From Betaproteobacteria bacterium (GTDB taxonomy: Bacteria > Pseudomonadota > Gammaproteobacteria > Burkholderiales > SG8-41), in the NCBI GenBank assembly GCA_900299145.1, contig OMIN01000149.1:41745-105744 (forward strand): a stretch of 64,000 nt of DNA, given 5' to 3'. Numbering within the stretch: the stretch's first letter is position 1; each line of letters starts with the position of its first letter. Under the pieces are notes generated by a model, which worked only from the letters and a program-made list of their open reading frames with translations, was not told where the DNA came from and searched no databases. Shown one piece after another: positions 781 through 63,076 of the stretch. The position numbers and the translations under genes are program-made.

Positions 781-812
781 TAACTATCTGATTCATATAA
801 ATAAATAGAATT
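781..812 (+). promoter_or_regulatory. IHF-like site TAACTATCTGATTC plus A/T tract
   Basis: One mismatch from the reverse IHF consensus YAANNNNTTGATW; lies between the enhancer and the sigma54 promoter. Confidence 0.6.
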
Positions 813-833
813 TTCCGCCCGAGGGGGCGAAGG

Positions 834-848
834 TGGCACGTTGTTTGC
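834..848 (+). promoter_or_regulatory. Sigma54 (-24/-12) promoter TGGCACGTTGTTTGC
   Basis: Exact TGGCACG-N4-TTGC match, oriented toward the GntR operon. Confidence 0.8.
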
Positions 849-852
849 GATT

Positions 853-878
853 ACTTGTAGCAAGATGTTGATACAAGT
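853..878. promoter_or_regulatory. Inverted repeat ACTTGTA-N12-TACAAGT, probable GntR/HutC-family operator
   Basis: Perfect 7-bp arms spanning the predicted sigma54 start site, just upstream of a HutC-type regulator. Confidence 0.5.
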
Positions 879-894
879 GATACCCAGTGACACC

Positions 895-1794
895 GTGCCG
901 CCGTCAGCGGCATCGCGTTCTCGGGCGGTGCCCGTAGGCATTCCGCCGGCTTATGGTGCGCACGCTTCCAACAAGACGCAGCACGCATTGCAGGGCACGT
1001 TCAATCCCGCGTCGCCCATGCCCCTTTACTCGCAGATCCGCGAGTTGCTGCGCGCCCGCATCGCCGATGGTGAATTTGGCGTAGAGGGCAAAATGCCTTC
1101 CGAAAACGACATGGTGAAGGCATTTGGCGTCAGCCGCATCACCGTGCGTCAGGCTCTTAACGATCTGCAGAAGGAAGGGCTGGTTTTCAAGATTCATGGC
1201 AAGGGCACGTTTGCCGCGAAACCCAAGGCCGTGCAAAGCCTGATGCGTCTGGAAGGGTTCGGCGAGGCCATGTCCGCATCCGGCCATGAAACGTATTCGC
1301 GCGTAGTGGGGCATCGCGAATTACGGCCCGGCTGTCATGTCGCATCGCGCCTCGGTCTGGGCGCCGGCGAAAAAGCCGAGGTCATGGAAATACAGCGCAT
1401 CCGTTACCTTGACCAGAATCCCATCTCGCTGGACGTGACCTATTTACCGCTTGAGATAGGCCGCCGTTTGATCAAGGAAGACCTGCAACGTCGCGATATT
1501 TTTCTGATCCTTGAAAACGACTACGGCATTGCGCTCGACCGCGCGGAGTTGCGCGTGGACGCCATGCTGGCGGACGCGAAGCTTGCTGAAGCACTGGCTG
1601 TGCCGGAAGGGTCGCCGGTGCTGCGCATTGAACGCCTCACGCTGGCCGCCGGCGGCCAGCCGCTGGATTTTGAATATTTGTATTACCGGGGCGATGCCTT
1701 CCAATACTTCCTGATGGTGGGGCGCCGCAGCCATGCGAGCGGCACTGCCTCCGGTCAACTACCCAAAGGACTAGGCAGAGGAGCCAAAAAATGA
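895..1794 (+). CDS. GntR (HutC/UTRA) family transcriptional regulator; start uncertain (865-1018)
   Basis: PLYSQI...MPSE...FGVSRITVRQAL...GKGTF winged HTH plus C-terminal UTRA-like domain. Confidence 0.9.
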   Translation: MPPSAASRSRAVPVGIPPAYGAHASNKTQHALQGTFNPASPMPLYSQIRELLRARIADGEFGVEGKMPSENDMVKAFGVSRITVRQALNDLQKEGLVFKIHGKGTFAAKPKAVQSLMRLEGFGEAMSASGHETYSRVVGHRELRPGCHVASRLGLGAGEKAEVMEIQRIRYLDQNPISLDVTYLPLEIGRRLIKEDLQRRDIFLILENDYGIALDRAELRVDAMLADAKLAEALAVPEGSPVLRIERLTLAAGGQPLDFEYLYYRGDAFQYFLMVGRRSHASGTASGQLPKGLGRGAKK

Positions 1795-4751: not shown

Positions 4752-4825
4752 GAGCTGATGTGGATTGGATATAAGTATCTGTTTTTATTGAATTTTTATG
4801 TAGTGACTTCAAGGAGATCGATATC

Positions 4826-8419: not shown

Positions 8420-8503
8420 CCGCTGCAACAATGCGGGAGTTTGTTGAGCAACCACGCTTATTGGAAGATAATTACCAGTTTTCATCGGAAATTTTGAGGT
8501 AAC

Positions 8504-12055: not shown

Positions 12056-12122
12056 CAGTGCGCTCGCCGAGACATTGTAAGTATCTGTTTTTATTAAATA
12101 TTTTATTTCAGGGCGGCACGTC

Positions 12123-13244: not shown

Positions 13245-14786
13245 CTACGAAAAAAATCCGTGCAGGTACCAGCGCGCGTTGACGTCGCGCTCGCGGTATA
13301 TCCACAGCAGCGATTGCGCGCGATTGCGCGCGACAAAGTAATCGCGCGCGACATGCCGGCCGTCCCACCAGCCGGCTTCGATACGTTCGGGGCCGGCGAG
13401 TAACGACAGTGGGCTGCCGTCGCTGTCGCGCGGCGCCGCGCGGACGCCGGTGCTGCCGCCATCATCCGTATCCTTTGAGCCGCCGGTGTCCCGTAAAGGG
13501 CGTGGCGTGGTCAGCAGCCACAGCGGGCGGGCGGGGGTGTAGGTGGAATGGGTTGTGGCAGTTGAAGCGGATGGGGAAGATGGGGACGATGAGGCGGAAG
13601 TTGCCACGCCCGGCTGGCAGGTGCGCCAGGCACGCTCCGGGCGGTAATCGGCGTGCGGTGTCAGGCCGCAAATGGCCTGCGCGCCGAGCCGTGCATTGAG
13701 CCGTTCGACAAAGCGCGTCGCGTCGCTGGCCTCGTCCGTGCCGCCGGGCAAAAAAGCGAGATTACGTGAGGCGAGCGGCACCACCCGCCCCGACGCAATG
13801 GCGATTTCGACGGCGGCGCACGGCAGCTCGGTGCGATTGAGGCGTTCGCGCAACAGCGTGGTCAGGTGATCAAGCTCGCGGGTGGCGCTGGAAAGCTCCA
13901 GTGTGATGACCGTAACTATTTGTTTTTCATGAATAAATTCAAAGCGGGGGTGTTGCACGCCGTGGCCGCTGGAGGCGAGCCAGCCGCAGAGTTCGGCGAG
14001 CAGACGGCGCGCGGCGAAGAGCAGTGCCTCGGCATTGGCCACGGGTGCGGGTAGTTGCAGCGCAGCACACCAGGTTTGCGGAGCGACAAACGGCAGGCGC
14101 GGATCAGGGGCAAGGCCCAGCGCGTGATCCAGTTGTATAAGCAGACGCGGGCCGGCGCGGCGCGTAAGACCATCGCGCGGCAGACGCAGGCAATCGCCCA
14201 GCGTGTGCGCGCCGAAGCTTTGCAGCAGATGCTGGGTGGCGGTGTCTTCACACGCCATGGCGGTCGGGAGTTTTTCAAGCGCATGGCGCAGCGCGTCGTG
14301 GTGCTGCACGCGCACATTGACCCCCGCGCGTGCGAACCATGAAGCGGCGAGCGGCGTGGGCGCACAGGCGATGCTGGCACTAAAACCCAAGTCCGCTACG
14401 CCGCGCGCGATCTGCTGGTGCAGTTTGGCGAGACCACCGAAGAGTTTCAGCGAGCCTTCGATGTCGAGTAGCACGGTATCCAGCCCGGCCAGACTGACCA
14501 ATGAAGTGAATTGCAGCGACCATGCGGCGATGCGCGCCAGCGTGGTCTGTTCCCGGGCGCTGTCACGCACGAGGGTTTGCAGCCCGGCGGCCAGCGCGCA
14601 CGCCGCCGCCACACTCATGCCCGGCTGCACGCCGCGTGCCAGTGCCGGGCGGTTGGCGTCAACTATGACGGCGCTGGTTTCGGCGCTGGAAGCAACCGCC
14701 GCGGCCGCGGGTTGTGGCTGCAGCGGCGTGCCGCGCGTGAAAACTTCCAGCGGCAGATGGCGAAAATGCAGCGCAAGCCACAACAT
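13245..14786 (-). CDS. imuB: ImuB, inactive Y-family polymerase
   Basis: MLWLAL.F..LPLE start; GVQPGM, ERLNARLG, RPLWLL and GPERIEAGWWD...RDYF...WYLHG motifs. Confidence 0.9.
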   Translation of the reverse strand: MLWLALHFRHLPLEVFTRGTPLQPQPAAAAVASSAETSAVIVDANRPALARGVQPGMSVAAACALAAGLQTLVRDSAREQTTLARIAAWSLQFTSLVSLAGLDTVLLDIEGSLKLFGGLAKLHQQIARGVADLGFSASIACAPTPLAASWFARAGVNVRVQHHDALRHALEKLPTAMACEDTATQHLLQSFGAHTLGDCLRLPRDGLTRRAGPRLLIQLDHALGLAPDPRLPFVAPQTWCAALQLPAPVANAEALLFAARRLLAELCGWLASSGHGVQHPRFEFIHEKQIVTVITLELSSATRELDHLTTLLRERLNRTELPCAAVEIAIASGRVVPLASRNLAFLPGGTDEASDATRFVERLNARLGAQAICGLTPHADYRPERAWRTCQPGVATSASSSPSSPSASTATTHSTYTPARPLWLLTTPRPLRDTGGSKDTDDGGSTGVRAAPRDSDGSPLSLLAGPERIEAGWWDGRHVARDYFVARNRAQSLLWIYRERDVNARWYLHGFFS

Positions 14787-14843
14787 GGGGAGAGGAAGAA
14801 AAAGGCGGGCGGTTTCAAATCGGTGCGCGGATCAATGCACGAG

Positions 14844-15608: not shown

Positions 15609-15659
15609 CAGAATCATCGTAACGCTTGTCTGGAAGAGGCCGGTGATCTTAGTGGTCAA

Positions 15660-15719: not shown

Positions 15720-15729
15720 CCAATGGCTT

Positions 15730-16438: not shown

Positions 16439-16570
16439 CTTTCTGGCGGTGGCAAGTGCTGTTGGTGCATTGCTTGCAATTTGTTCTATAAGTATTTGTT
16501 TTTAAACAATATTTAAAATATGCTCATCCCGCACAAGGGTTAGCGGCCGGTTCTCATCTGGAGGAAAGAC

Positions 16571-18137: not shown

Positions 18138-18319
18138 CGAGCGCCGCAATGTTCGTACGGAAACTCATTCGCGAAGCGGATTTGGGCGATTTGAATGTGT
18201 TGAACGTGCTTCACAATGCCCGCTTGCGCCGAAGTGAACCTCTCCAAAATGGGATTTTATAACTATCTGTTTTTTAATGACTTTTTTATTTCGAGGTCAT
18301 TCCAGATTCCGCAACCGTA

Positions 18320-18461: not shown

Positions 18462-18503
18462 GTTTCTGGCGTTTGGCGCGTGGTCGGTAAGGTATTGATT
18501 TAA

Positions 18504-20518: not shown

Positions 20519-23380
20519 ATGGCGCAACAGAACGTCACACAATTTGCCAAAGACCTGGGCGTGCCGCCGGCACAGCTCATTGAGCAGTTGCAGGCTGCGG
20601 GCGTGAAAAAAGCGTTCGCGGCGGAAACCGCCCTGACCGAAGGCGACAAGACGCAACTCCTTGATTTTCTTAAACAATCTCACGGGCAAAAAGAAGAGAA
20701 AAAGAAAATCACGCTGACCCGGCGGTCCACCACCGAGATCAAGAAGGCGGATGCGACTACTGGTAAGGCGCGCACAATTCAGGTTGAAGTGCGCAAGAAG
20801 CGCGTGCTGGTCAAGCGCGATGCGCCGGCTGTCGCCGAAGCGCCGGTCGCACCGGCGGTAGAAGAGGCGGCCGAAGTAGCTGCACAAGCTGCGCCGGTTG
20901 CACCAGTTGCACCGGTCGCACCCGAACCTCCTGCTATTGAAACACCGCAGCCCGTGGCAGAACCGGTGGTGGCAAAAGCGGCCGAGCCGCCACCCGTTGT
21001 CGAAACGCCGGTGGTGGCGGCGCCCGAACCGGCTGCGCCCCAGCCTGCTGCGGTTACGCAGCCAGCGCCTGCTGCCCCTCCCGCTCCTGCGGCTCCCGTT
21101 ACTGCTGCCACTCCGGCCACGCCTGAAGCGCCCGTTGTTCGCAGGACCGTACCCGGCCCGCGTCCGGTGCTGGATGCCAAACAAATCGCCATTCGCGAAG
21201 CCGAGGCCCGGCAACACGCCGCGTTGGCGCAGCGTCAGGCCGAGGAATTGCAGAAGAAGCAGGCGTTGGAGGCCGAGCGCAGGCGCAAGGCTGAACTGGC
21301 GGCTGCTGCTGCGGAGGCGGCAAAAAATGCCAAGGCTAATGAAGCCACGGCCAAAAAGCCCGAAGGTGGAGTGGCTGGTACCCTTCACAAACCCGCGATG
21401 CCTGCGGGCGAGAAGAAATCGCCCAAGAAGGCAGCAGCTCCCAAGGCTGCGCCCGGTGCATGGCGCGACGAAGGCGCGGCCAAGCGCCGCACCATCAAGA
21501 CGCGCGGCGACGCCACGGGCGGCACGGGAATTGGCGGCTGGCGTGATCGCAAAGCCAAGCACGGCTGGCACAAGGACGATGCTGAAGCGCAACACGCGTT
21601 TTCGGCGCCCACCGAACCGGTGGTGCGCGATGTCGTCGTGCCGGAAACCATTACCGTTGCCGATCTTGCGCACAAGATGTCGGTGAAGGCTGCCGAAGTA
21701 ATCAAGGCGCTCATGAAACTCGGCAGCATGGTCACGATCAATCAAGTGCTCGATCAGGACACCGCAATGATCGTGATCGAGGAAATGGGGCACAAGGCGG
21801 TGCGCGCCAAGCTTGACGACCCGGATGCGTTCCTCACCGAAGACCAGGCACCACATGCCGAAGCCGTGGCTGAAACACGCGCACCGGTGGTCACCGTGAT
21901 GGGCCACGTCGACCACGGCAAGACGTCACTGCTCGACAAGATTCGCAGCACCAAGGTGACGGTGGGCGAGGCGGGCGGCATTACCCAGCACATCGGCGCG
22001 TATCACGTAGAGACGGCCAAGGGCATGGTGACATTCCTTGATACACCGGGCCACGAGGCCTTTACCGCCATGCGTGCGCGCGGCTCGAAGGTCACTGATC
22101 TGGTGATTCTGGTGGTGGCGGCGGATGACGGTGTGATGCCGCAAACGCAGGAAGCCATCGCACATGCCAAGGCGGCCAAGGTGCCCCTGGTGGTGGCGTT
22201 GAACAAGATTGACAAACCGGAGGCCAACGCTGAACGCGTGATGCAGGATCTGGCGTCGCAAGAGGTCGTGCCGGAGCAATGGGGCGGCGATACGCAGTTC
22301 GTGCCGGTATCGGCGCGCACGGGCGAAGGGCTGGATGCCCTGCTCGACGCCGTGCTGTTGCAGGCAGAGGTGCTGGATCTGAAAGCGCCGAAAGAAGCGC
22401 CGGCCAAGGGTGTAGTGATCGAATCGCGGCTCGACAAAGGGCGTGGTCCGGTGGCCACGGTGCTGGTGCAATCGGGTACGTTAAAGCAGGGCGATGTCCT
22501 GCTCGCGGGCGCGGTGTTCGGGCGCGTGCGCGCGCTGGTGGACGAAGCGGGGGGCACGGTCAAGGAAGCCGGGCCGTCGATTCCAGTGGAAGTGCTGGGC
22601 TTGCAGGATGTGCCCGCGGCAGGTGCGGACGTGCTGGTGCTGGGCGATGAGCGCAAGGCGCGCGAAATCGCGCTGTTCCGCCAGGGCAAGTTCCGCGACG
22701 TTAAGCTCGCCAAGCAGCAGTCGGCCAAGCTGGAAAACATGTTCGACCAGATGGGCGAAGGCGAGAAAAAAATGCTCCAGCTCATCATCAAGGCCGACGT
22801 GCAGGGCTCGTACGAAGGCTTGTCTCATGCGCTGTCGAAACTCTCGACCGACGAGGTGAAGGTCAACATCGTGCATGCAGCGATTGGCGGCATTACCGAA
22901 TCGGACATCAACCTCGCGCTGGCATCCAAGGCGGTGGTGATCGGCTTTAACGTGCGTGCCGACGCGGCCGCGCGCAAGCTGGCAGAAAGTGGCGGCATCG
23001 ATATCCGCTACTACAACATCATTTACGAAGCGGTCGACGACGTAAAAGCCGCGCTGACTGGCATGCTGGCGCCGGAGCGCAAGGAAAATACGCTGGGCAC
23101 GGTCGAGGTGCGCGAAATTTTCCGCATCTCCAAGGTGGGCACGGTGGCGGGCTGTTTCGTCAGCGATGGCCTCGTGCGGCGCAATGCGCGTGTGCGCGTG
23201 CTGCGCGACAGCGTGGTGATTCACGAAGGCGAATTCGATTCCTTAAAGCGTTTCAAGGACGATGTGCGCGAAGTCAAATCGGGCTTTGAATGCGGCCTGT
23301 CGCTCAAGGGTTATAACGATCTGAAAGCCGGCGACCAGCTTGAAGTGTTTGAGGTGGTTGAAGTAGCGAGAACTCTTTAA
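20519..23380 (+). CDS. infB: Translation initiation factor IF-2
   Basis: [25 protein letters not shown]; Ala/Pro-rich linker. Confidence 0.99.
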
Positions 23381-23495
23381 CTATTTGTTTTTAAATAGTT
23401 TTTATTAATCGCCTTATTGCGGAATACGCTTAAAACACGGAAGATATCTTTGGTGAGTTTTTTCGCGTGTTTTGCGGTAAAGACGGTTTGCTGAC

Positions 23496-27648: not shown

Positions 27649-27766
27649 GAATCGCTCTAGCGAAGCGGAAAAGGGTTTCTCTATAAGTATTTGTTTTAAT
27701 TGGATATTTTATTTGACTTTGGCTGCGATGTAACTTTTGCCTTCAGCAGAATCTCGATCGAGTCGC

Positions 27767-30066: not shown

Positions 30067-30111
30067 GTGGGTAATTTTAACTATCTGTTTTTAAAGAGAA
30101 AAAATTAACCC

Positions 30112-33530: not shown

Positions 33531-33660
33531 CGCTGTACCGCATATTTTGGGAACCGTCACACCGCGCGCCCGGCGTGACACGACCCTAGATGTACCGAAA
33601 AGTGAATAAATTTAAATACTTGGAAATTAGTGTGGCGTCGGCGAAAGCGGTCGTTGGACT

Positions 33661-35758: not shown

Positions 35759-35875
35759 GAATATTCCAAAGCGTGTTACATAAGTTTTTGATTTGCTTGA
35801 ACTTCCTTGCTCGGCTAAAATTATACGCTGACATATCCCGTTAACTTATTGCTCACCGAATATCGAAGTCCGCGC

Positions 35876-38679: not shown

Positions 38680-40092
38680 GTGCGCTACATCAGTACTCGC
38701 GGCGGCATGAGTCCGCGCGGTTTTCGGGAAATCCTGCTGGAAGGCCTGGCCACCGACGGTGGATTGGCAATGCCGGAATCGTATCCTCGCTACGAGGCCC
38801 CTGATCTCGCACGCCTGCGCAAACTGAAATATCGCGATCTGGCGTTCGACATTCTGTCGCGTTACATCGACGATATTCCCGCCGCCGATCTCAAGCGGCT
38901 GATCGACGCCACATACACAGCGGAAGTGTTCGGTAGTGACGACATCACGCCGCTGAAGACGCTGGAGCCGGGTCTTCACATTCTGCAACTGTCGAATGGA
39001 CCGACGCTGGCGTTCAAGGATGTGGCGCTGCAACTGCTCGGCAACCTGTTTGAATATGTTCTCGCTGAGAACCACGGTGAATTAAACATACTCGGGGCCA
39101 CATCGGGTGATACGGGTTCCGCCGCCGAATATGCGATGCGCGGCAAGCGCGGCGTGCGCGTGTTCATGCTGTCGCCGCACGGCAAGATGAGTCCGTTTCA
39201 GACGGCACAGATGTACTCGCTGACCGATCCGAACATATTCAATATCGCGATCAAGGGCGTGTTTGATGACTGCCAGGATATTGTCAAACAGGTATCCAAC
39301 GATGCGGAATTCAAGCGTCGACATCACATTGGCACGGTGAATTCGATCAACTGGGCGCGCGTGGCGGCGCAGATCGTCTACTACTTCAAGGGCTACTTTG
39401 CCGCTACGACGCTCGACACGCAGCAGGTGTCATTCGCCGTGCCGTCGGGCAACTTCGGCAACATTCTCGCCGGACACATTGCGCGCATGATGGGTTTGCC
39501 GATCCGCAAGCTGATCCTCGCCACCAACGAAAACAACGTACTCGACGAATTTTTCCGCACCGGGCGTTACCGGCCGCGCGGTTCTTCGGAAGTGCATCAG
39601 ACGTCCAGCCCGTCGATGGATATCTCCAAGGCGTCGAATTTTGAGCGTTTTGTATTTGATCTTACCGGCCGTGACGCGGCGCTGCTGCGTACGCTGTGGC
39701 AGTCGGTCGACGGCGGCGGTGAATTCCGGCTGGCCGATACGCCGCTCCTGGGCAAAATGCCCGGCTTCGGCTTTTTGTCCGGCACGAGCACGCACGCCGA
39801 CCGCATCGCCACCATCCGCAGCGTGTATCAGCGTTATGGCGTGATGATCGACACGCACACGGCAGATGGCGTCAAGGTGGGGCTGGCGTGCCGCGAACCC
39901 GGCGTGCCGCTGATTTGCCTGGAAACCGCACAGCCGGTAAAGTTTGCCGAAGTTATCAAGGACGCACTGGGCCTCGAGCCGGAATGTCCCGCAAACTGCC
40001 GCGAACTCGCGCAGTTGCCGCAGCGGGCGGAGGTTATGGGGGCCGATGCCGCGGCGGTAAAACAGTATGTGCACGATCATTGTGTATCGTAA
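38680..40092 (+). CDS. thrC: Threonine synthase
   Basis: YISTRG, GPTLAFKD, ATSGDTGSA, NSINWAR, VPSGNFG. Confidence 0.97.
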   Translation: MRYISTRGGMSPRGFREILLEGLATDGGLAMPESYPRYEAPDLARLRKLKYRDLAFDILSRYIDDIPAADLKRLIDATYTAEVFGSDDITPLKTLEPGLHILQLSNGPTLAFKDVALQLLGNLFEYVLAENHGELNILGATSGDTGSAAEYAMRGKRGVRVFMLSPHGKMSPFQTAQMYSLTDPNIFNIAIKGVFDDCQDIVKQVSNDAEFKRRHHIGTVNSINWARVAAQIVYYFKGYFAATTLDTQQVSFAVPSGNFGNILAGHIARMMGLPIRKLILATNENNVLDEFFRTGRYRPRGSSEVHQTSSPSMDISKASNFERFVFDLTGRDAALLRTLWQSVDGGGEFRLADTPLLGKMPGFGFLSGTSTHADRIATIRSVYQRYGVMIDTHTADGVKVGLACREPGVPLICLETAQPVKFAEVIKDALGLEPECPANCRELAQLPQRAEVMGADAAAVKQYVHDHCVS

Positions 40093-40198
40093 AATTATTA
40101 AAATAAATCAAATGTTTACGATAATATTCCGCACTTGATAACGCGCCTCGATGTCCGGTCTACTCTGTAACTTCTAACGCCAAGCTCTGCCTCCGCCC

Positions 40199-45848: not shown

Positions 45849-45872
45849 TCTGAATAGGAGGCTATAAAAAAT

Positions 45873-47108
45873 ATGAATAAAAACAAATACTTAAATTGTT
45901 CCCTTGATGTATCGCGGCGGAATTTTCTGACGCGAGTGGCCGCCACTGGCGCGGCACTCAGTGCCGGGAAAGTGCTGGCGCAGGAAGCGCCAAAACCGCC
46001 CGCTGATCCAGCCGGCACGGTCGCCAACAGCACGGTGATGGGCGAAAAACATGCGGGCATGGTGGTGCATTCGGAACGCCCGCTGACGGCCAGTGTGCCG
46101 GCCGAGTTGCATCACTTTGCGGCCACGCCCAACGATCGCATGTTCGTGCGCAACAACCTGCTCACGCCGGACATCGACGCCGCCCAACACCGCTTGACCG
46201 TGAAAGGTTCGGTGCACAAGGAAGTGTCGTTTTCGCTGGACGAGTTGCGCAAAAATTTTCCGGTGGTGCGTACGCAAGCCATGCTGGAATGCGCGGGCGC
46301 AGGGCGCACGGGCTTCGTGCCGCGCCCCAGCGGCACGCCATGGTCCGTGACGGGCGGCATGGGGTGTCCGGTGTGGAACGGCGTGCGGTTGCGCGATGTA
46401 CTCCGCGCGGCGGGTGTGCAGAACCACGCGGGTTACGTGGCAGGGCAGGGCGGCGATTTTGGCGTGATCGCCACTGCCGCGCCGGTGATTCGCTCGATAC
46501 CGCTCGACAAGGCGATGGAGCCGCACACGCTGGTGGTGTTCGGTATGAACGACGGTCCGCTGCCGAAAATTCACGGCCATCCGCTGCGGCTGCTCGTGCC
46601 GGGTTGGGCGGGCAGTGCATCAACCAAATGGCTGCACACGCTGACCGTGCTCGACGCGCCGTTCAAGGGAACGTATATGGACACCAGCTACCGGATACCC
46701 CGCGATGCGGTGAAGCCCGGCGAAAAAATGCCGCCGGATGCGCTGGTCACCGAAGCATGGCCGGTGAAATCGATGATTACCTATCCCGCGCAGAATGCCG
46801 TGTTCAAACTTGGCCAATCGGTGCTGGTCGAAGGCCGCGCCTGGGTGGGTGAGGGCGCCATTGCCAAAGTCGAGTTGTCATTCGACGAAGGCGTGACGTG
46901 GCAGACCGCGCAGATTAACAGCGCCACCGATAAATACGCCTGGCGCATTTTCAGCGTGGAATTCAAACCCGCGAAGCCGGGCTTTACCACGGCGCTGGCG
47001 CGCGCCACCGATGATCGTGGCAATACGCAGCCGATGGCAGCCAAGTGGAACCCGCTGGGTTACTTCTGGAACGGCGTGCATCGCGTTGGCTTTGTGGTCG
47101 AAGCATGA
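45873..47108 (+). CDS. Tat-exported sulfite oxidase-family molybdoenzyme (SorA/SorT/SoxC-like)
   Basis: SRRNFL twin-arginine signal, FVRNN, MLECAG Mo-ligating Cys, HGHPLRLLVPGW, KWL. Confidence 0.88.
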   Translation: MNKNKYLNCSLDVSRRNFLTRVAATGAALSAGKVLAQEAPKPPADPAGTVANSTVMGEKHAGMVVHSERPLTASVPAELHHFAATPNDRMFVRNNLLTPDIDAAQHRLTVKGSVHKEVSFSLDELRKNFPVVRTQAMLECAGAGRTGFVPRPSGTPWSVTGGMGCPVWNGVRLRDVLRAAGVQNHAGYVAGQGGDFGVIATAAPVIRSIPLDKAMEPHTLVVFGMNDGPLPKIHGHPLRLLVPGWAGSASTKWLHTLTVLDAPFKGTYMDTSYRIPRDAVKPGEKMPPDALVTEAWPVKSMITYPAQNAVFKLGQSVLVEGRAWVGEGAIAKVELSFDEGVTWQTAQINSATDKYAWRIFSVEFKPAKPGFTTALARATDDRGNTQPMAAKWNPLGYFWNGVHRVGFVVEA

Positions 47109-51164: not shown

Positions 51165-51211
51165 GTCACTACCTTGTATGAATTTAAGTATTTGTTTTAA
51201 AAGGGATATTT

Positions 51212-52413
51212 ATGAAACAACTCAAACTTCCGGCCGTCTTCATGCGCGGCGGCACCAGCAATGCCATCGTGTTCCGCCAGCAGGATTTGCCGCGTGACCG
51301 CGCCGCGTGGGATGAAATTTTTCTCGCCGCCATCGGCAGCCCCGACCCATATGGCCGGCAACTGGACGGCATGGGCGGTGGCGTGTCGTCGGTGTCCAAG
51401 GTTTGCGTGGTGGGGCCGCCCACGCGCCCGGACGCGACATCGACTACACCTTCGCGCAGGTTCAGGTGAAAAAGGCCGAGGTGGATTACAGCGCCAACTG
51501 CGGCAATATGTCCTCCGCCATGGGGCCGTTCGCGGTGGACGAGGGCATTTTCAAGGTCGGTGCGGGTAGCAAAGAAGCCGTGGTGCGCATCCACAATACC
51601 AATACCAAAAAAATCATTCAAGCACGCTTCAACATGGACGAGGGCCTGTCCGAAGTTGATGGCGATCTGGCGATACCCGGCGTGTCGGGCACCGGCTCGC
51701 CGGTACGGCTGGAGTTTCTGCAACCCGGCGGCGCCAGCACCGGCAAGCTGCTGCCCACCGGCAATGTCAGCGACGTGCTCGATGTCCCCGGCGTCGGCAA
51801 GCTCACCGTCAGCATGGTGGATGCTGCCAACGCAACGGTGTTCGTGCGTGCGGCTGACCTGGGCCTGACCGGCATTGAAATGCCCGACGCACTGGAAGCC
51901 AACACCGCCATCATGCAAAAACTCGCCGCCATCCGCGCGCAAGCAGCAGTGGCCATGGGCATCACCAAAACGGCGGAAGAAGCGCTGAAAAAAGGCGGCA
52001 CGCCCTTCGTCGGATTTATCGCCGGCCCGCAGGATGCGGTCACGCTCACCGGCGACAAGCTGAACGAAAACGACATCGACCTCACCGCGCGCATGCTTTC
52101 CAACGGCCAGCCGCATCGCGCGCTGCCATTGACGGTGACGCTGTGCACGGCTGTTGCTGCGCGTATTGAAGGTTCGGTGGTGCATGCGGCTACGCGTGCA
52201 GTGAGTGATAAGAACGCGCCGATTCGCATCGCCATGCCGTCCGGTATTTTGACGGTAGCGGCGGACGTGAAGCTCAAGGACGGCCAATGGCACGCCGAGC
52301 AGGGCGCGTTTTACCGCACGCAGCGGCGATTGTTTGAGGGCTATGTTTATGTGCGGGCTTCGCAGGTGCCGAGGTTGGTGGCGGCTACTCGGGGGAAGTT
52401 GAAGGCGGCGTAG
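51212..52413 (+). pseudogene. prpF: PrpF/AcnD-accessory family isomerase with a 1-bp frameshift near 51436
   Basis: FMRGGTS and QLDGMGGG..S.SK in one frame; DIDYTFAQV and NCGNM in the next. Confidence 0.8.
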
Positions 52414-52503
52414 TGCGAGCCGAATGCAAGATGGGTGTGAAATTGTGGGGTGGGCACGCCACGCTTTGCCCCGCCCAGCACTTGCCATTCTGAAATAGCC
52501 GAG

Positions 52504-53126: not shown

Positions 53127-55433
53127 ATGAACACCCCCCAATTTGAAATCAACGGCGCGAACGTAACGCGACTGGAAGATCATCGCCTGCTGACCGGCCA
53201 GGGGCAATTCGCGGCGGATTGGCGCTTGCCGGGGCAACTGTATGGCCATTTCCTGCGGGCGGACCGGGCGCACGCACGCATCGTTAAGCTGAATGTGGCG
53301 AAGGCGCGGGCGTATCCCGGCGTGCATGCGGTGTTGACCGGCGAGGACGCCGTGCGCGCGGGCTGTGTGCAGCCGGTAAGTTTTTTCAATTTTCCCGGCA
53401 AGCATGGCGCAAAACCCTTGGTGCCGCAGTGGCCGGTGCTGGCGCACTGCAAGGTGCGCTTTGCGGGTGAACCCGTGGCCTTTGTGGTGGCGGAAACTGA
53501 ACACGCCGCGCAAGATGCCTGTGCGCGGATTGAAGTCGCATACGCGGATCTGCCGTGCGCCGTGACGGCTGAAGCCGCGCTTGCGCCATCGGCCGCGACG
53601 CTGCACGACGGCATTGCGGGGAATCTGGCGTTCGAGTGCGAAGCAGGCGATGCCGCCGCCACTGAGGCGGCGTTCGCGCGGGCGGCGCATGTGTCGCGGC
53701 TTTATCTCACCAGCACGCGGGTGGTGCCCAGCCCGATGGAGCCCCGCGCCTGTCTCGCCGCTTTTGATGCCGCGACGGACACTTACACGGTGCACGCCTG
53801 CATTCAGGGCGCCAACATGCTGCGCATGCAGCTGGCGGGCTACATGCGGGTGCCGGAATCGAAGATCAGGGTTGTCGCGCGGGACGTAGGCGGCGGCTTT
53901 GGCTGCCGCAGCATGGGCTATCCGGAATATTGCGCGGCGATGCTGGCGGCGCGCGCCACGGGGCGGCCGGTGAAGTGGATTTCCACGCGCACGGAAGCCT
54001 TTCTCGCCGACAACCACGGGCGCGGCAGCGTGGTGCAGGGTGAACTCGCGCTGGATGCGCAGGGCAAATTTCTCGCGATGCGGCTGGACTGGATTGCCGA
54101 GGTTGGCGCGTATATGACACCACCGGCGGCGGTGGCGACGATACGCAATCCGATGGTGAGCTTTACCGGCGCGTATCGCATCCCGGCGCTGCATGGCCGT
54201 TGGCGCGTGGCGATGACCAATGCCGCGCCGATCGGCAATTATCGCGGTGCGGGGCGGCCCGACATTGCTTATGTGGTCGAGCGGCTGATGCAGCAGGCGG
54301 CAGTGGAAACGGGCGTTGATCCGGTGGCGTTGCGGCGCAGGAACTACATTCCCGCCGAGGCGTTCCCATACAAAACGCCCACCGGGTCGGTGTACGAAAA
54401 CGCCGACTTTGCAGGCTTGATGGACAAGGCGCTGGCGGCGGCGGATTGGGATGGTTTTCCCGCGCGGCAGGCCGAATCTTCCAAAGCCGGCAAGCTGCGC
54501 GGGCGCGGCATGGCGACTGTGATCGAGACCACCAACGCCGGCGCGCAGCCGAAAGATCAGGTCGCGTTGCAGGTGCAGGGCGACGGGCGCGTCATTGTGC
54601 ACACCGTGTCGCACGCGCAGGGGCAGGGGCACGAAACCACGCTCGCCATGCTGGTGGCGCGCGCGCTGCAAATTCCCACCGAGCGTGTCGTTGTGCGTCA
54701 GGGGCTGAATGAGCCGGCGCTGCTCGGCAACCACACTGGCGGTTCGCGCAACACCGTGGGCGTGGGCACGGTGTGCCATCTCACGGCGTTAAAGCTGATT
54801 GACCAGGGCAAGGCGCGCGTGGCCGAAGCGTGGGGCGTGGAGCCGTCGCAGGTAGCTTATGCCCGCGGCGCGTTCACCTGCAAAGAACCCAATAAAAACC
54901 GAGCCTTACAGGAACTGGCCGGTAACGGCATGTTCGAGACCATCGGCGAGGGTGCATTCGGCGCGACGTTTCCCAACGATTGCCATGTGGCCGAGGTTGA
55001 AGTCGATCCCGAGACCGGGCAGGTGACAGTGATGTCGTACGTCACCGCTGATGACTTTGGCGTGATTGTCAACGACACGATAGTCGAAGGCCAGTTGCAC
55101 GGCGCGGTGTTGCAAGGCGCCGGGCAGGTGTTCGGTGAAGTCGCGCATTATGATTCCGCCAGCGGGCAAATGCTGACCGCCAGTTTCATGGATTACTACC
55201 TGCCGCGCGCCGGGCTGATTCGCGACATCAACATGAATCACCATGCCACGCCGTCGCGCGTGAGCCCGCTTGGCGTCAAAGGCATGGGCGAGGCGGGGCT
55301 CACCGGCGCGTTGCCCGCGCTGACCAACGCCGTGCTGGATGCGTTGCGTGGCGTTGGCATCACGCATCTGAACATGCCGCTCACGCCCGCGAAAATCTGG
55401 AGTGCGATTCAGGCGGCGCGGTTGCGCGGGTGA
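53127..55433 (+). CDS. Xanthine dehydrogenase family Mo-binding subunit (CoxL form II-like)
   Basis: RLEDHRLLTG, DVGGGFG, NYRGAGRP, GQGHET, GVKGMGE. Confidence 0.9.
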   Translation: MNTPQFEINGANVTRLEDHRLLTGQGQFAADWRLPGQLYGHFLRADRAHARIVKLNVAKARAYPGVHAVLTGEDAVRAGCVQPVSFFNFPGKHGAKPLVPQWPVLAHCKVRFAGEPVAFVVAETEHAAQDACARIEVAYADLPCAVTAEAALAPSAATLHDGIAGNLAFECEAGDAAATEAAFARAAHVSRLYLTSTRVVPSPMEPRACLAAFDAATDTYTVHACIQGANMLRMQLAGYMRVPESKIRVVARDVGGGFGCRSMGYPEYCAAMLAARATGRPVKWISTRTEAFLADNHGRGSVVQGELALDAQGKFLAMRLDWIAEVGAYMTPPAAVATIRNPMVSFTGAYRIPALHGRWRVAMTNAAPIGNYRGAGRPDIAYVVERLMQQAAVETGVDPVALRRRNYIPAEAFPYKTPTGSVYENADFAGLMDKALAAADWDGFPARQAESSKAGKLRGRGMATVIETTNAGAQPKDQVALQVQGDGRVIVHTVSHAQGQGHETTLAMLVARALQIPTERVVVRQGLNEPALLGNHTGGSRNTVGVGTVCHLTALKLIDQGKARVAEAWGVEPSQVAYARGAFTCKEPNKNRALQELAGNGMFETIGEGAFGATFPNDCHVAEVEVDPETGQVTVMSYVTADDFGVIVNDTIVEGQLHGAVLQGAGQVFGEVAHYDSASGQMLTASFMDYYLPRAGLIRDINMNHHATPSRVSPLGVKGMGEAGLTGALPALTNAVLDALRGVGITHLNMPLTPAKIWSAIQAARLRG

Positions 55434-55491
55434 ATGCGGGTAGCTGCGAAGTTAAGGTGGGGAAAGTAAAAAAATGAATAAAAACAAATAC

Positions 55492-56487
55492 TTATAAGGT
55501 ATTGGCGCAATCGACTACTACCGTCCCATTCTTGGGGCGATATTCAACGGCCTCGTGCGCGCCTGCCGTGTTGGCTAGCGGAAAAACCGACGACACGCTG
55601 TGCACCATGCCACCTTCGTGCAGCCACGCGACGATGTCGTTTTGCGCCCGTTTGCGCGCTGCGTGTGGTGCGTTGTTTAGCAGCACGGCGTGGATCGACA
55701 GATTTTTGCGCATGAGTTCCGGCGCGGTGATCGTGGGCGTGGGGTTGCCCTTGGTGACGTAGTAGGCGATGGAGCCGTTCACCGCCAGCAGTGGCAGAGT
55801 GGTGGCGAGATTGCCGCCGAAATCGACGTCGACGACGTGATGCACACCGGCGTTTCCTGTGATTGCACGTACACGCTCAATCACATTTTCAGTTTTGTAG
55901 TTGATCACATGAGCCGCGCCACCGGCTTGGGCGTGCACAGCTTTTTCATCCGAACTGACGGTGGCGATAACCCTGGCGCCAAAGCGCTTGCTCCATTGCA
56001 CGGCGTAGTGCCCCACCGCACCCGCGCCGCCGGTGACGAGCACGGTCTTGCCTTGTAAATCTCCACCGAGTGATACGCAGCGGTGTGCGGTCATGCAGGG
56101 GATGCCGAGGCAGGCGCCTTCGTTAAAGCCGGTGTTGTCCGGCAGCGCCGAAACCAGATCAACGTTGAGTGCAATGGTTTCCGCCGCTGTGCCCAGCAGG
56201 CGCCCGCCGCGCTGGCCGTTGTACAACCACACGCGTTTGTTGAGCCACGCAGGGTCTACACCCGCGCCGATTTGATCCACCACTCCCGCGCCGTCGCTGT
56301 TGGGGATGATAAGCGGGCCTTCCATGGCATACGTACGGCCGACGGTGCGGTTGGTATCGGCGGGGTTCACCGCGGATGCGTGCAGGCGCACGCGCACTTC
56401 GCCGGCGCCAGCGTGTGGCGTGGGCTGCTCGCCAAATTGCATGACATCGGCGGGCTTGCCCTGACGGGGGTACCAGGCGGCTTTCAA
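55492..56487 (-). CDS. NADPH:quinone reductase (zeta-crystallin/MDR family)
   Basis: AVNP.D, IPNSDGAG, VLVTGGAGAVG. Confidence 0.9.
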   Translation of the reverse strand: MKAAWYPRQGKPADVMQFGEQPTPHAGAGEVRVRLHASAVNPADTNRTVGRTYAMEGPLIIPNSDGAGVVDQIGAGVDPAWLNKRVWLYNGQRGGRLLGTAAETIALNVDLVSALPDNTGFNEGACLGIPCMTAHRCVSLGGDLQGKTVLVTGGAGAVGHYAVQWSKRFGARVIATVSSDEKAVHAQAGGAAHVINYKTENVIERVRAITGNAGVHHVVDVDFGGNLATTLPLLAVNGSIAYYVTKGNPTPTITAPELMRKNLSIHAVLLNNAPHAARKRAQNDIVAWLHEGGMVHSVSSVFPLANTAGAHEAVEYRPKNGTVVVDCANTL

Positions 56488-60734: not shown

Positions 60735-60807
60735 GGTACGAGCATCCAGAAGAAATTCAGGCTACATTGTGACACTGAAAGAACAGCCTGACCTGCGAGA
60801 ATTGAAT

Positions 60808-61029
60808 GTGAACGCGATTGTAATTGAGCCGGGCTGCTACCGGCACTACAAAGGCAACGATTACGAAGTCATCGGCATGGCGCGGCATTCGGAGACGCTG
60901 GAGCCGATGGTGGTCTATCGCGCGCTGTACGGCGAGGGCGGGCTGTGGGTGCGGCCTGCTGGCATGTTCGCGGAATCAGTGACGGTTGACGGACGCACCG
61001 TATCCCGATTCGCACGGGTGCCGCCATGA
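60808..61029 (+). CDS. DUF1653 domain protein
   Basis: PG.YRHYKG..YEV...ARHSET.E.MVVYRALYG..GLWVRP..MF. Confidence 0.88.
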   Translation: MNAIVIEPGCYRHYKGNDYEVIGMARHSETLEPMVVYRALYGEGGLWVRPAGMFAESVTVDGRTVSRFARVPP

Positions 61030-61919
61030 GTACCACAAGTATCAACTGGTTTCCCGGCCATATGGCGGTGGCGGTTGCCAAGGCAAAGGAAGCGACTGCG
61101 GACAACGACGTGATCATCGAAGTGCTGGACGCACGCTGTCCGATGGCAAGTTCCAACCCGCTGGTTGATTCCCTGCGCCTGCACCGGCAGCGGCCCTGTC
61201 TCAAGGTGCTCAACAAGGCGGATCTCGCCGATGCCACTGTGACCACGGCGTGGCTGGGTTATTTCAATGCGCAGAAAAACGTGAAGGCGATAGCGTTGTC
61301 CTGCAAAAAGCCGGGCGACGCGGCGAAGGTGCTGGCGGCGGCAAAAAAGCTAGCGCCACATCGCAGTGACGCCTTCAAGCCGCTGCGCATGATGATCATG
61401 GGCGTGCCCAACGTGGGCAAGTCGACGTTGATCAATGCGCTGCTCAAGCGCCGCGCGGCGAAGGTTGGCGACGAACCGGCGGTGACCAAGGTGCTGGCGC
61501 GTTACGACTTGTCGCCGGAAGCGAGCCTGACTGATACGCCGGGCCTGATGTGGCCGCGCATCGACGTCGAGGCCGACGGGCTGATGCTGGCCGCGAGCCA
61601 CACCATCGGCGTGCGTGCGTATCACGAAAGTGAAGTGGCGGTGTTTTTGGGGGAGATTTTGCTGGCGCGATATCCTCGCGCGTTGGCCGGACGCTATGGC
61701 ACCCAGGCCGTTGTCACGGATGGCGCAGGCGTGGTGGAGGCCGTGGCGGCACGGCGCGGATACCGCCTGAAGGGGGCGGGCTTTGATCTTGAAAAAGCGG
61801 CAATCACGTTGCTTAATGATTATCGCAGCGGCGCGCTGGGAAAGGTGAGTCTGGAGACGCCAGGAAACGCGCCGCGTCTGAGAGCGGCCCATACGTTGAC
61901 AGAAGAAAAACTTAATTAA
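61026..61919 (+). CDS. ylqF: Ribosome biogenesis GTPase RbgA/YlqF
   Basis: INWFPGHM, EVLDAR.P, NKAD, GVPNVGKS, DTPG (circularly permuted GTPase). Confidence 0.93.
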   Translation: MSTTSINWFPGHMAVAVAKAKEATADNDVIIEVLDARCPMASSNPLVDSLRLHRQRPCLKVLNKADLADATVTTAWLGYFNAQKNVKAIALSCKKPGDAAKVLAAAKKLAPHRSDAFKPLRMMIMGVPNVGKSTLINALLKRRAAKVGDEPAVTKVLARYDLSPEASLTDTPGLMWPRIDVEADGLMLAASHTIGVRAYHESEVAVFLGEILLARYPRALAGRYGTQAVVTDGAGVVEAVAARRGYRLKGAGFDLEKAAITLLNDYRSGALGKVSLETPGNAPRLRAAHTLTEEKLN

Positions 61920-61935
61920 AACAGATACTTACTGT

Positions 61936-61970
61936 AAAACAAAAGCCCCGCGCAAATTTCGCACGGGGCT
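61936..61970 (-). terminator. Intrinsic terminator for the glycine-zipper gene
   Basis: Minus strand AGCCCCGTGC-GAAATTT-GCGCGGGGCT followed by TTTGTTTT. Confidence 0.7.
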
Positions 61971-62005
61971 GCCGGATTGGGCGTCTGGAAGGGTGGCTTG
62001 GTTGC

Positions 62006-62917
62006 TTAGTTGTATTGCAGCCGCCCCTCAATAATGCGCACACGCTCGCCCGCGCGGAACGCGGGTTCAGTGTCGTACGGAAACACGCGGGTCGAGCCGT
62101 CTTCCATGCGCACCACCACTTCATAGCGGCGGCCGGAACTGGTGCGACGCTCAATCTGGTGTCCGGCATACGCGCCGCCGGCGACGCCCGCGACAGTGGC
62201 GACCGTGCGACCCGTGCCGCGGCCCACCTGATTGCCCAGCAAACCGCCGGCCACTCCACCGATCACCGCACCCAAACCACTGGCTTCGCCAGCGACCGAT
62301 TGCACGACGACGTTTTCCACTGTACCGCAATTGCCGCACTGCGCAGGCGACTGCTGCGTTACCACGGCGGGCGGATAAGGCGTGGCTGCAGGCGCGGTCA
62401 CGGGCGCCGGCACGGCACTGCCGGGCGGCGGCGAAGGATAGGCGGGCGCTTGTGTGACGGGCGCGGGGTAAGTGGATTGAACGGGCGTGGTCGCGGCGGG
62501 GTACGACAGCACGCTCGGCTGCGTATTATTCGCGGCTGCACCAGCAGCGGGCATGCCAGCGGGCGCGGGATCAAAGGGCGCAGCCGACGGAGGCGTTTGC
62601 CGAGTAGATTGCACTTGAGCGACTTGCTGGGGGGCGACGGTGGCGGCCGCTGCGGTCTGAATTTGCTCAGGTTGTCCCGTGCCAGCAGGGCTGGTCTGGG
62701 CGGTTTCCTTGTTAAGTGAAACTTTCATGGGCTCGGCGGCGGGTGCAGAGACCGGCTTTACCGCCGGGGCGCGTGCTTTTTCCGCCACCTTGCTGAACTC
62801 ATCCGCGCCTGCGTCATAGTCCATCGCCATGCCGAAGACCGCGGCAACAGCTGCCACGCCAGCCACGGCGGCTATGGTTCCCAAGGAACTGGATTTGGTG
62901 GTGGTTTCGTCAGCCAT
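62006..62917 (-). CDS. Glycine zipper 2TM (SlyB-like) protein with Pro/Ala-rich linker
   Basis: C.NCG.V, GAVIGGVAGGLLGNQVG.G.GR..ATVAG, YEVVVRMEDG; AGGAG RBS. Confidence 0.85.
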   Translation of the reverse strand: MADETTTKSSSLGTIAAVAGVAAVAAVFGMAMDYDAGADEFSKVAEKARAPAVKPVSAPAAEPMKVSLNKETAQTSPAGTGQPEQIQTAAAATVAPQQVAQVQSTRQTPPSAAPFDPAPAGMPAAGAAANNTQPSVLSYPAATTPVQSTYPAPVTQAPAYPSPPPGSAVPAPVTAPAATPYPPAVVTQQSPAQCGNCGTVENVVVQSVAGEASGLGAVIGGVAGGLLGNQVGRGTGRTVATVAGVAGGAYAGHQIERRTSSGRRYEVVVRMEDGSTRVFPYDTEPAFRAGERVRIIEGRLQYN

Positions 62918-63076
62918 TTGGTTTCTCCTTGGACGGCAGCGGGCTACTGATCCCCGGCGCCGCAATCCCCGGTGCCGCGCGTTACTTTCCAAACGTGAGC
63001 ATAGCACGACTGCCGCTCGTCGCGTGCGAAAATTATTTAATTAAAACAGATACTTATGTTGTGGCATGGCAATGGG

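Follow-up and report, generated by a model that had tools for sequence, protein, structure and literature searches.

A near-invariant IHF-type bending site dispersed through the genomes of uncultured betaproteobacteria, and its possible link to natural transformation

We analyzed a stretch of 64,000 nucleotides (hereafter the window; contig OMIN01000149.1, positions 41,745 to 105,744, assembly GCA_900299145.1) from an uncultured betaproteobacterium of the SG8-41 lineage of Burkholderiales, together with the rest of its genome and the genomes of its relatives. The window carries many copies of an AT-rich element with the core TAASTATYTGTTTT, a 14-mer that an earlier note, made from the letters of the window, had taken for a genome-wide signal consisting either of bending sites for integration host factor (IHF) or of an uptake-like tag. 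The signal is indeed genome-wide, with about 1,520 copies, and the identification of the element as a complete and near-optimal IHF-type bending site is well supported by its sequence. Both options of the earlier note received support, and the choice between the two is not settled. The uptake-like option has gained from the species dialects of the element, from its overlay on genes by substitution, from its even spacing, and from its fading in two lineages that lack dprA and comEC. Our leading reading, held tentatively and at slightly less than even confidence, is that of an IHF-type bend site whose copies natural transformation keeps numerous and uniform. Below, genomes are designated by G numbers and genera by g numbers, where G000 is the genome of the window and g1 is its genus.

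Results

Abundance, placement and spacing of the element

The assembly of G000 (5,508,723 bases in 158 contigs, 99.7% complete, ~60% GC) contains 721 exact copies of the 14-mer, 348 in forward and 373 in reverse orientation. Their alignment delimits a conserved block of ~37 bp, from about -9 to +28 of the core, in which a weak A/T-rich stretch is followed by the 14-mer and then by TATTGAATTTTTTT; no conserved sequence was found in this alignment outside -9..+28. The second A/T tract one helical turn away, noticed previously in the window, is a feature of the whole family and appears in the logo as T runs at +10..+14 and +21..+26. Using a profile of the ~37-bp block, we identified 1,520 copies with a score of at least 20, compared with 72 for the reversed profile.

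The distribution of copies relative to genes was determined with a crude gene caller of our own, which called 4,726 genes (86% coding) with over-extended starts. Altogether, 1,158 copies (76%) fall between called genes, 136 lie deep in genes, 210 are within 150 nt of an over-extended start, and 16 are within 40 nt of a stop. In addition, at 52 copies the TAA of the element terminates a co-oriented upstream gene. This is a sharp spike over the neighbouring offsets and suggests that there is pressure to accommodate the element in very short spacers.

The earlier note had argued that the element does not mark a regulon, and the genome-wide counts agree. In tandem spacers, 180 exact copies are co-oriented with the flanking genes and 184 are opposed, and every type of spacer is occupied roughly according to its number: 107 exact copies are in convergent spacers and 79 in divergent ones, the convergent share being 107 of 550 intergenic exact copies against 708 of 4,568 spacers. 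The proposed check for strand bias revealed none relative to the local GC skew (559 vs 605 copies).

The proposed check of spacing regularity showed that copies are spaced more evenly than expected by chance. The gap between successive copies averages 3.47 kb with a coefficient of variation of 0.63, compared with 0.78-0.87 for a random choice of intergenic spacers (depending on the weighting) and 1.0 for uniform random positions; none of the 200 draws fell below 0.73, whichever of the three null models was used. Short gaps of less than 1 kb make up 4.8% of the total (10-15% expected) and long gaps of more than 8 kb make up 3.7% (5.8-6.9% expected). We considered whether the deep-in-gene copies fill unusually long gaps, and ruled this out: the median span between their two neighbours is 6.7 kb, vs 6.5 kb around intergenic copies, as for ordinary members of the array. 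The longest element-free stretches in G000 measure 12-23 kb (e.g. C31:36661-59998), and several of them have a G+C content of 0.54-0.58, compared with 0.60 for the genome; they may be recently acquired islands.

Anatomy of an IHF-type bending site

The IHF consensus WATCARNNNNTTR occupies one side of the site, the strongest sites have an upstream A tract, and the site is recognised by indirect readout, as described in the part of PMC9519438 available to us. Read on the other strand, the element consists of an A tract, 8 bp, WA(A/T)CAR, four weakly specified bases (N4) and TTA. Among the 1,520 copies, the top base reaches a frequency of 0.97-1.00 at core positions 1, 2, 8, 9, 11, 12 and 13, and of 0.93 at position 0. 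Position 7 is a pyrimidine (T 0.64, C 0.30) and position 10 is A or T (T 0.75, A 0.25), and at the N4 positions (3-6) the top base reaches only 0.59-0.89. Thus the strong, degenerate and weak positions of the element coincide with those of the IHF consensus. The T run at +21..+26 (top base 0.57-0.90) lies 8 bp from the core, on the correct side for the A tract of an IHF site.

The core, as its reverse complement, reads AAA(A/T)CA(A/G)-N4-TTA. The main variant of the element agrees with the consensus at eight of the nine specified positions, and the TGATTT variant, which accounts for 25% of copies in G000, at all nine. The one departure is at position 10, where T is commoner than the canonical A. 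The resemblance to IHF sites suspected earlier is therefore stronger than could be seen in the window, given that the TGATTT variants are perfect matches to the consensus and that the most conserved positions of the element are the consensus positions. The accompanying remark that IHF sites are normally degenerate stands as the key anomaly. N4 is constrained as well, reading STAT in 940 of 1,393 copies in G000.

As an independent check of IHF function, we also examined candidate sigma-54 promoters, at which IHF sites typically lie between the enhancer and the promoter. A copy is centred 15-90 nt upstream of 13 of 76 such candidates, vs 5.1 expected from the intergenic density, and a reversed decoy motif shows a similar excess (4 vs 1.8 expected).

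HU/IHF-family proteins

In G000, ihfA adjoins pheT and ihfB adjoins rpsA. The encoded proteins are clear orthologues of E. coli IHF (E-values of 2.4e-38 and 3.1e-32 to 1IHF chains A and B, respectively). Their arms, whose inspection had been suggested, are intact and conserved, with the tips RPGRNPKTGE and GRNPKSGD. These are the only two HU/IHF-family genes found in this 99.7%-complete genome, where no HU was detected. As IHF is the sole protein of the HU/IHF family encoded in these bacteria, it very probably binds the element.

Sequences of the HU/IHF family were read from 26 genomes, and the comparison elsewhere in the family of the window rests mostly on match counts and scores. Every genome of g1 has proteins of the IhfA and IhfB types only (two genomes yielded one subunit only), and G014 has an extra, divergent IhfB-like paralogue. 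True HU is present in the outgroups G021, G022 and G023; it is the third gene in G022 and G023, and G021, which has two matches only, has HU and IhfA. Across the family, at least three HU/IHF-family matches were found in one of 50 element-rich genomes, compared with 48 of 71 element-poor ones (G043 included). The combination of IhfA and IhfB without HU, indicated by match counts for all five element-rich genera described below, is unusual for Betaproteobacteria. The absence of HU is not sufficient for the element, because seven of nine genomes of genus g5 have no more than two HU/IHF matches and yet are element-poor.

The element-rich part of the genus also differs in the IHF arms. Of the 19 element-rich genomes for which IhfB could be read, 18 have the IhfB motif SGDRV and one (G011) has SGDPV, compared with SGEKV in G014 and three outgroup genera, and TGEKV in G031, a genome from another family. 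At the arm base of IhfA, outgroups have D or E, and members of g1 have I, L, M or Q. These substitutions coincide with the element-rich part of the genus and represent a single evolutionary event.

Dialects and distribution among relatives

The exact pattern of G000 is present in 19 of the 20 other genomes of the genus, with 13-565 copies, and is missing from one. When N4 is freed (the relaxed pattern, TAANNNNTTGWTTT), these 19 genomes have 341-1,193 copies, compared with no more than 19 for the controls. Outside the genus, counts of the relaxed pattern stay near the control level in all but one of 20 genomes; the one that departs is G031 (143 vs 24 for the control).

The element occurs in lineage-specific dialects. 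The dialect of G000 is TAAGTATTTGTTTT, that of G011 is TAAGTATTTGATTT, and G006 has mostly TAACTAATTGATTT. The TGATTT form makes up 809 of 881 copies in G011 and 745 of 1,063 in G006, and twelve other species have at most 50 such copies each. Orthologous copies carry the dialect of their own species. The IHF arms do not track these dialects: IhfA arms are identical and IhfB arms nearly identical among G000, G006 and G011, whose dialects differ, and therefore changes in IHF are not obviously behind them. We also looked for covariation between dialects and individual IHF residues and rejected it, as the T/A dialect is not cleanly tracked (G020 has I at the IhfA arm base yet few A-variant copies) and the comparison is confounded by kinship.

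We surveyed 121 genomes of the family, which represent 13 genera; five of these genera are strongly enriched in the relaxed pattern and the other eight are not. The enriched genera are as follows.

g1 (genus of the window): 20 of 21 genomes, relaxed count 341-1,193
g25: one genome, relaxed count 776 vs 13 for the control
g26: 21 of 21 genomes, relaxed count 86-403
g27: 7 of 7 genomes, relaxed count 45-179
g22: one genome, relaxed count 144 vs 3 for the control

The element of G045 (g26) is the same and reads TAAGTATTTGATTTTATTGAT. The named records that carry a 22-base form of the element are all metagenome-assembled genomes of uncultured betaproteobacteria, apart from a few single matches elsewhere.

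G031, which belongs to another family of the order, has a genome of 2.6 Mb without HU and contains the same IHF-like pattern, more mildly enriched, in 163 copies (47 for the control). The preferred N4 (G/C, T, A, T/A) stands out among its IHF-like sites too, and therefore part of the N4 preference may belong to IHF itself. G031 could be an independent case on a small scale, or it could reveal the natural IHF optimum of the order.

Substitution rather than insertion at orthologous sites

We compared the nusA-infB-rbfA-truB-rpsO-pnp region of the window with the same region in 18 sister genomes, which are 70-86% identical to it in DNA sequence. Twelve sister loci reach the copy upstream of rimP, and 11 of them have it with position and orientation unchanged. 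The exception is G014, where the search for a decayed remnant upstream of rimP gave a best profile score of 5.8, indistinguishable from chance. A copy at the infB stop is shared by about 10 of the 18 sister loci, and the copy inside truB has a score of at least 25 in five sister loci and weaker forms in four others.

The truB copy, which had been proposed for comparison among relatives, reveals how the element is written into a gene. In an alignment of 18 rows, the element region is free of gaps. Element-bearing species read CAAGTATTTGATTTAATAGATAATTTTTTT or close variants, compared with ordinary GC-rich codons of the same length in G001 and G015, and the TruB protein shifts with the DNA, from LQVFDLIDNFFKL to LQLVAMADAYITL. 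The codons follow the species dialect, encoding QVFDL in G000 and G011 (GTAT) and QLIDL in G006, G020 and G005 (CTAA). This gap-free overlay and the orthologous copies indicate that substitutions write the element, which is then inherited at its site. A copy located between dprA and topA is common to g1 and g26; since G045 of g26 also has the same element, the element predates these genera.

Competence genes and natural knockouts

All 20 element-rich genomes of g1 yielded both ComEC and DprA, and ComEA was found in the three element-rich genomes searched for it (G000, G006 and G011). G000 also has a type IV minor-pilin cluster and a PF16732-family (ComP_DUS-type) pilin (60.7 bits); in Neisseriaceae, ComP is the specific receptor of the uptake sequence. 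Pilins of the latter type are present in 35 of 41 relatives, including element-free ones; since they are equally present there, this family is uninformative. G006 has two full-length ComEC genes (C11 and C39), and its contamination estimate is 2%.

Only three of the 121 genomes of the family, G014, G129 and G055, yielded neither ComEC nor DprA. G055 is from an element-poor genus and is 86% complete. G014 (97% complete) is the only element-free member of g1, with no exact copies and a relaxed count of 87 vs 41 for the control. Its dprA is cleanly gone from between a LysM-type gene and topA, and its comEC is gone from the syntenic neighbourhood. In G129 (g26, 94% complete), dprA is deleted between the same two neighbours, where G045 and G114 keep it. 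With 86 copies in its 2.6 Mb (33 per Mb), this genome is the sparsest of its genus, the other 20 genomes having 54-105 per Mb. The uniformity of its copies is reduced as well: within 233 kb sampled from G129, only 2 of the 16 relaxed copies have the preferred N4 (STAW), compared with 25 of 44 for G045 and 16 of 38 for G135, which is another genome of g26, small and competence-positive (Fisher p of 0.003 and 0.057, respectively). Thus, two independent losses of transformation genes within the element-bearing clade coincide with the poorest arrays.

The ComEA model TIGR00426 has no match in G024, an element-poor and HU-less member of g5 that is 100% complete. If true across g5, the absence of ComEA would be a third competence defect accompanying the absence of the element.

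Copies in the window

The 14-mer has 13 exact matches in the window, all at the coordinates and on the strands recorded in the earlier note, and not one match was obtained in 100 dinucleotide-preserving shuffles of the window (0 expected); the G+C content of the window is 57-64%. The TGATT variants at 781, 18488, 24378, 35781 and 40105 and the weak copies at 8469 and 33609 are as originally described, and the longer identities, of 21 bp at 45873/55474 and 20 bp at 61912/63037, are exact. A profile scan of the window, in which scores of at least 15 were listed and a score of at least 20 defined a full copy, returned 16 full copies and 4 further weak ones. All copies are listed below.

772..809 (core 781-794), plus strand: element copy, TGATTC variant TAACTATCTGATTC; profile score 23.2
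4763..4800 (core 4772-4785), plus strand: element copy; score 51.6; tandem spacer, flanked by a HEAT-repeat gene and a gene for a sulfonate-binding protein
8460..8497 (core 8469-8482), plus strand: weak copy; score 15.3
12069..12106 (core 12078-12091), plus strand: element copy; score 55.1; tandem spacer
13904..13941 (core 13913-13926), plus strand: element copy; score 37.9; antisense within the imuB-like IMS-family gene (13245-14786, minus strand)
16480..16517 (core 16489-16502), plus strand: element copy; score 48.0; divergent spacer between lexA and a TctC-family gene
18251..18288 (core 18260-18273), plus strand: element copy; score 41.0; upstream of rimP-nusA
18488..18501, plus strand: weak TGATTT variant TAAGGTATTGATTT, just before the rimP start; not among the scan scores of at least 15
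23369..23406 (core 23378-23391), plus strand: element copy; score 44.8; its TAA is the infB stop codon
24369..24406 (core 24378-24391), plus strand: element copy in truB, CAAGTATTTGATTT; score 39.4; over the codons for QVFDLIDNFF
27675..27712 (core 27684-27697), plus strand: element copy; score 52.4; convergent spacer between pnp and dksA
30069..30106 (core 30078-30091), plus strand: element copy; score 36.3; tandem spacer
33594..33631 (core 33609-33622), minus strand: weak copy; score 15.9
35772..35809 (core 35781-35794), plus strand: weak TGATTT variant TAAGTTTTTGATTT; score 16.7
40090..40127 (core 40105-40118), minus strand: element copy, TGATTT variant TAAACATTTGATTT; score 34.1; after a threonine synthase gene
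45865..45902 (core 45880-45893), minus strand: element copy; score 52.2; over the initial codons (MNKNKYL) of an opposite-strand SorA-like gene
51176..51213 (core 51185-51198), plus strand: element copy; score 42.9; divergent spacer, flanked by an MFS gene and a PrpF gene
54880..54917 (core 54895-54908), minus strand: weak copy; score 16.1; inside a molybdopterin oxidoreductase gene
55466..55503 (core 55481-55494), minus strand: element copy; score 52.3; its TAA terminates a gene of the quinone-oxidoreductase type (55492-56487, minus strand)
61903..61940 (core 61918-61931), minus strand: element copy; score 47.3; its AT-rich flank holds the TAA stop of a YlqF GTPase gene (61026-61919, plus strand)
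63028..63065 (core 63043-63056), minus strand: element copy; score 47.3; tandem spacer on the minus strand

The intragenic positions given previously also hold. The copy at 13913 is inside the imuB-like open reading frame (ORF) of the IMS family, the variant at 24378 is inside truB, and the copy at 45880, assigned to a signal peptide, overlaps the first codons (ATGAATAAAAACAAATACTTA) of the SorA-like protein with a TAT signal. The element's TAA does serve as the stop codon of infB (23378) and of the gene annotated as a quinone reductase, which is of the zinc-dehydrogenase/quinone-oxidoreductase type (TAA at 55494-55492). At the weak site before the rimP start (18488), similar weak matches with scores of 12.6-15.8 occur in four sister loci.

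Several features near these copies are recorded here in their own right. At 833-848, 45 nt downstream of the copy at 781, the window has a near-consensus sigma-54 -24/-12 motif, TGGCACGTTGTTTGCG. It precedes a gene for a GntR/UTRA regulator, which is odd for a sigma-54 promoter, and it may be due to chance. On the minus strand at 13245-16332, lexA, a 271-aa ORF without a Pfam match (in the position of imuA) and the imuB-like IMS-family gene form a cassette. No dnaE2 lies directly downstream of the cassette, the next gene being that of a luciferase-like monooxygenase on the other strand. A 527-aa ORF without a family match (51184-52767, minus strand) ends in the element's TAA; it overlaps the PrpF gene (51403-52413) on the opposite strand and is probably a spurious shadow ORF of GC-rich DNA.

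Discussion

Natural transformation as a possible molecular drive

In the reading that we tentatively prefer, natural transformation would act as a molecular drive on the element, as proposed for the uptake sequences of Haemophilus and Neisseria. Fragments with a good copy would be preferentially taken up or recombined, and good copies would therefore replace poor ones in the population through homologous recombination. Upon loss of the competence genes, the array would thin and lose its uniformity. With this explanation, the element's dialects, its overlay on genes, its spacing and both natural knockouts are accounted for. The anatomy and distribution of the element, its overlay by substitution, its dialects and its association with the presence of dprA and comEC are direct observations; from them we infer IHF binding, any bias in uptake or recombination, and the reader of the tag, which may be IHF or another receptor. 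A drop of G+C in G014 after the loss of transformation would fit a recombination-linked GC bias.

A number of observations weigh against this explanation. The knockout argument consists of two events only, and G014 and G129 are the smallest genomes of their genera, so that confounding is possible. G014 has a G+C content at third codon positions of pnp of 0.49 (0.62-0.79 in the genus) and a branch 5-7 times longer, and a general change of lifestyle could be behind both losses. Its position in the genus is also unsettled: a tree of PNPase proteins does not resolve it, one of pnp DNA nests it with G005 and G006 (99.9/98), one of nusA DNA puts it elsewhere with weak support, and the approximately unbiased test does not reject a basal position (p 0.064). 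Accordingly, G014 may never have had the element. ComEC was not found in G114 (91% complete), yet its element count is high (344). Among less complete genomes, G084 (72%, ComEC not found) is the poorest of g27, and G041 (76%, DprA not found) is still element-rich. G129 still has 33-69 copies per Mb with the full A/T-tract layout; thus much of the array persists without dprA, as selection for IHF binding predicts. Competence genes are present in nearly all element-poor genera too, and the sole candidate receptor family, the ComP_DUS-type pilins, is as frequent in element-free relatives (35 of 41). Only 136 of 1,520 copies lie deep in genes, and the uptake sequences of Haemophilus and Neisseria have a far larger share of their copies within genes. 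Finally, a plain uptake model leaves the IHF-site nature of the tag unexplained.

Alternative explanations

The strongest competitor is a purely architectural array, which we consider possible and rank below the transformation drive. Here HU would have been lost, IHF would be left as the sole bender of its family, and strong IHF sites would be selected at regular intervals, without any role for transformation, so that they fold a GC-rich chromosome, pin supercoils or delimit topological domains. Such an array would account for the full IHF anatomy of the element and for the rarity of three or more HU/IHF matches in element-rich genomes (1 of 50 vs 48 of 71 element-poor ones). It is also favoured by the SGDRV motif of IhfB and the changed IhfA arm base in the element-rich genus, and by the even spacing in which deep-in-gene copies participate (6.7 vs 6.5 kb). 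The many full-layout copies in G129 without dprA and the same N4 preference in HU-less G031 (163 vs 47) point in the same direction. In addition, simulations described in the available part of PMC9519438 have IHF pinning plectonemes and dividing DNA into domains. Nevertheless, nearly the same IHF arms are found in G000, G006 and G011, yet their dialects differ at N4 and position 10, and independent selection on 1,500 sites predicts no species-wide uniformity at weakly contacted positions. Nor does a purely architectural role predict that genomes without dprA and comEC should be the poorest of their genera, and g5, with mostly no more than two HU/IHF matches (7 of 9 genomes), is element-poor. 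The dialects could instead betray a reader whose preference shifts between species, as IHF arms hardly differ; this reader would be another sequence-specific protein, either a lineage-specific nucleoid protein or an uptake receptor unrelated to IHF, and the likeness to IHF sites would come from shared A/T bendability. The N4 positions (0.59-0.89), tighter than in the textbook IHF consensus, are in line with it. We consider such a protein improbable, since the strong, degenerate (Y and W) and weak positions match the IHF consensus one by one, the A tract is on the right side at the right distance, and the same N4 preference occurs among ordinary IHF-like sites of another family; no candidate protein was found.

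Two further explanations have very little probability left. The many near-identical, dispersed and mostly intergenic copies resemble a small non-autonomous mobile element, similar to miniature inverted-repeat transposable elements or repetitive extragenic palindromic (REP) units, that spreads by insertion. This is largely refuted: there are no terminal inverted repeats, palindrome or symmetry in the logo, and nothing is conserved beyond -9..+28. Moreover, copies occupy orthologous places in species only 70-86% identical, the truB copy replaces codons without a change of length in 18 rows, and the dprA-topA copy is common to two genera. The location of many copies in the window 35-120 nt upstream of start codons might suggest a promoter, terminator or operator of one regulon. 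This proposal is refuted by the random orientation relative to flanking genes (180 vs 184); convergent spacers hold 107 of 550 intergenic exact copies, though they are only 708 of 4,568 spacers, the element forms no hairpin, and the flanking genes are of unrelated function.

The transformation drive and the IHF nature of the site can be combined. In this extension, which we regard as an unlikely but attractive prediction, the IHF bend gates DNA uptake, and the tag is the site of a nucleoid protein that spreads by molecular drive. A sharp U-turn imposed by IHF, or permitted by an IHF-type sequence, would be what admits a long duplex to the uptake pore. Uptake would then favour fragments that carry strong IHF sites, and the site would become a tag of self-recognition. 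Bend-gated uptake would explain together the use of an IHF site as a tag, the apparent lack of HU in five genera and the thinning of arrays, with loss of uniformity, without dprA and comEC, and it fits all observations. In that case the element would form a third class of uptake sequence, with a mechanism different from those of the other two.

Significance

To our knowledge, only two bacterial families are known to use sequence-specific tags for DNA uptake, and it is unclear how the Haemophilus tag is read. If the element is a true uptake tag, it would represent a third family, carried by uncultured betaproteobacteria that are abundant in fresh water. Being built on the site of a well-understood bending protein, it would offer a testable model for both the recognition and the origin of such tags. 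If it is purely architectural, this would be the first bacterium that places near-identical IHF sites at regular 3.5-kb intervals, which bears on the organisation of a nucleoid without HU. Either way, the element is a marker for its clade in metagenomes, and it warns annotators of AT-rich stretches that reshape proteins such as TruB. We searched the literature available to us for four 14-mer forms of the core and found no paper carrying any of them.

Comparison with known systems

High-affinity IHF sites, with WATCARNNNNTTR and an upstream A tract as in the lambda H' site, share with the element the core consensus, the degenerate R and W positions, the side of the A tract and a conserved length of ~35-37 bp. 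In the H' site, the A tract is at exactly the same 8-bp distance. The host encodes both IhfA and IhfB with conserved arms. The element differs in that its commonest form in G000 has A, not T, at the third position of WATCAR, and in that N4 is constrained. Ordinary IHF sites are degenerate and scattered, whereas the element is near-invariant, occurs about 1,500 times per genome, is regularly spaced and is uniform within a species.

The REP elements of E. coli of the RIP (repetitive IHF-binding palindromic) or BIME (bacterial interspersed mosaic element) type carry an IHF site. Like the element, they are dispersed, repeated and mostly extragenic near-identical IHF sites. In contrast to them, the element has no REP palindromes or hairpin, is about ten times more numerous, is written into genes by substitution and has no sign of transposase-mediated spread. 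HIP1 of cyanobacteria is another hyper-abundant short word that is conserved within lineages and written into genes, with an unknown function according to the part of PMC5861425 available to us. Unlike the element, HIP1 is an 8-bp GC palindrome with no likeness to a protein-bending site and no known link to competence.

The layout of the uptake signal sequence (USS) of Pasteurellaceae, a core followed by two helically phased A/T tracts, is similar to that of the element. More generally, the USS and the DNA uptake sequence (DUS) of Neisseriaceae, the latter as far as the available parts of PMC3630211 and PMC2397512 describe it, have hundreds to thousands of near-invariant copies in both orientations, are spaced more evenly than by chance, are kept at orthologous sites, are written into genes by substitution and are associated with transformation genes, as is the element. 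Lineage-specific dialects, which the element shares, are a hallmark of the neisserial sequences, and, as with the element, one pair of DUS dialects that are a single A/T transversion apart occurs within one Simonsiella genome (PMC3630211, same limitation). The element differs from USS and DUS in being AT-rich in a genome of 60% GC, in having 76% of its copies between called genes, and in a density about three times lower. Its host is from a different, uncultured betaproteobacterial family, and it is an IHF-type site, as no known uptake sequence is.

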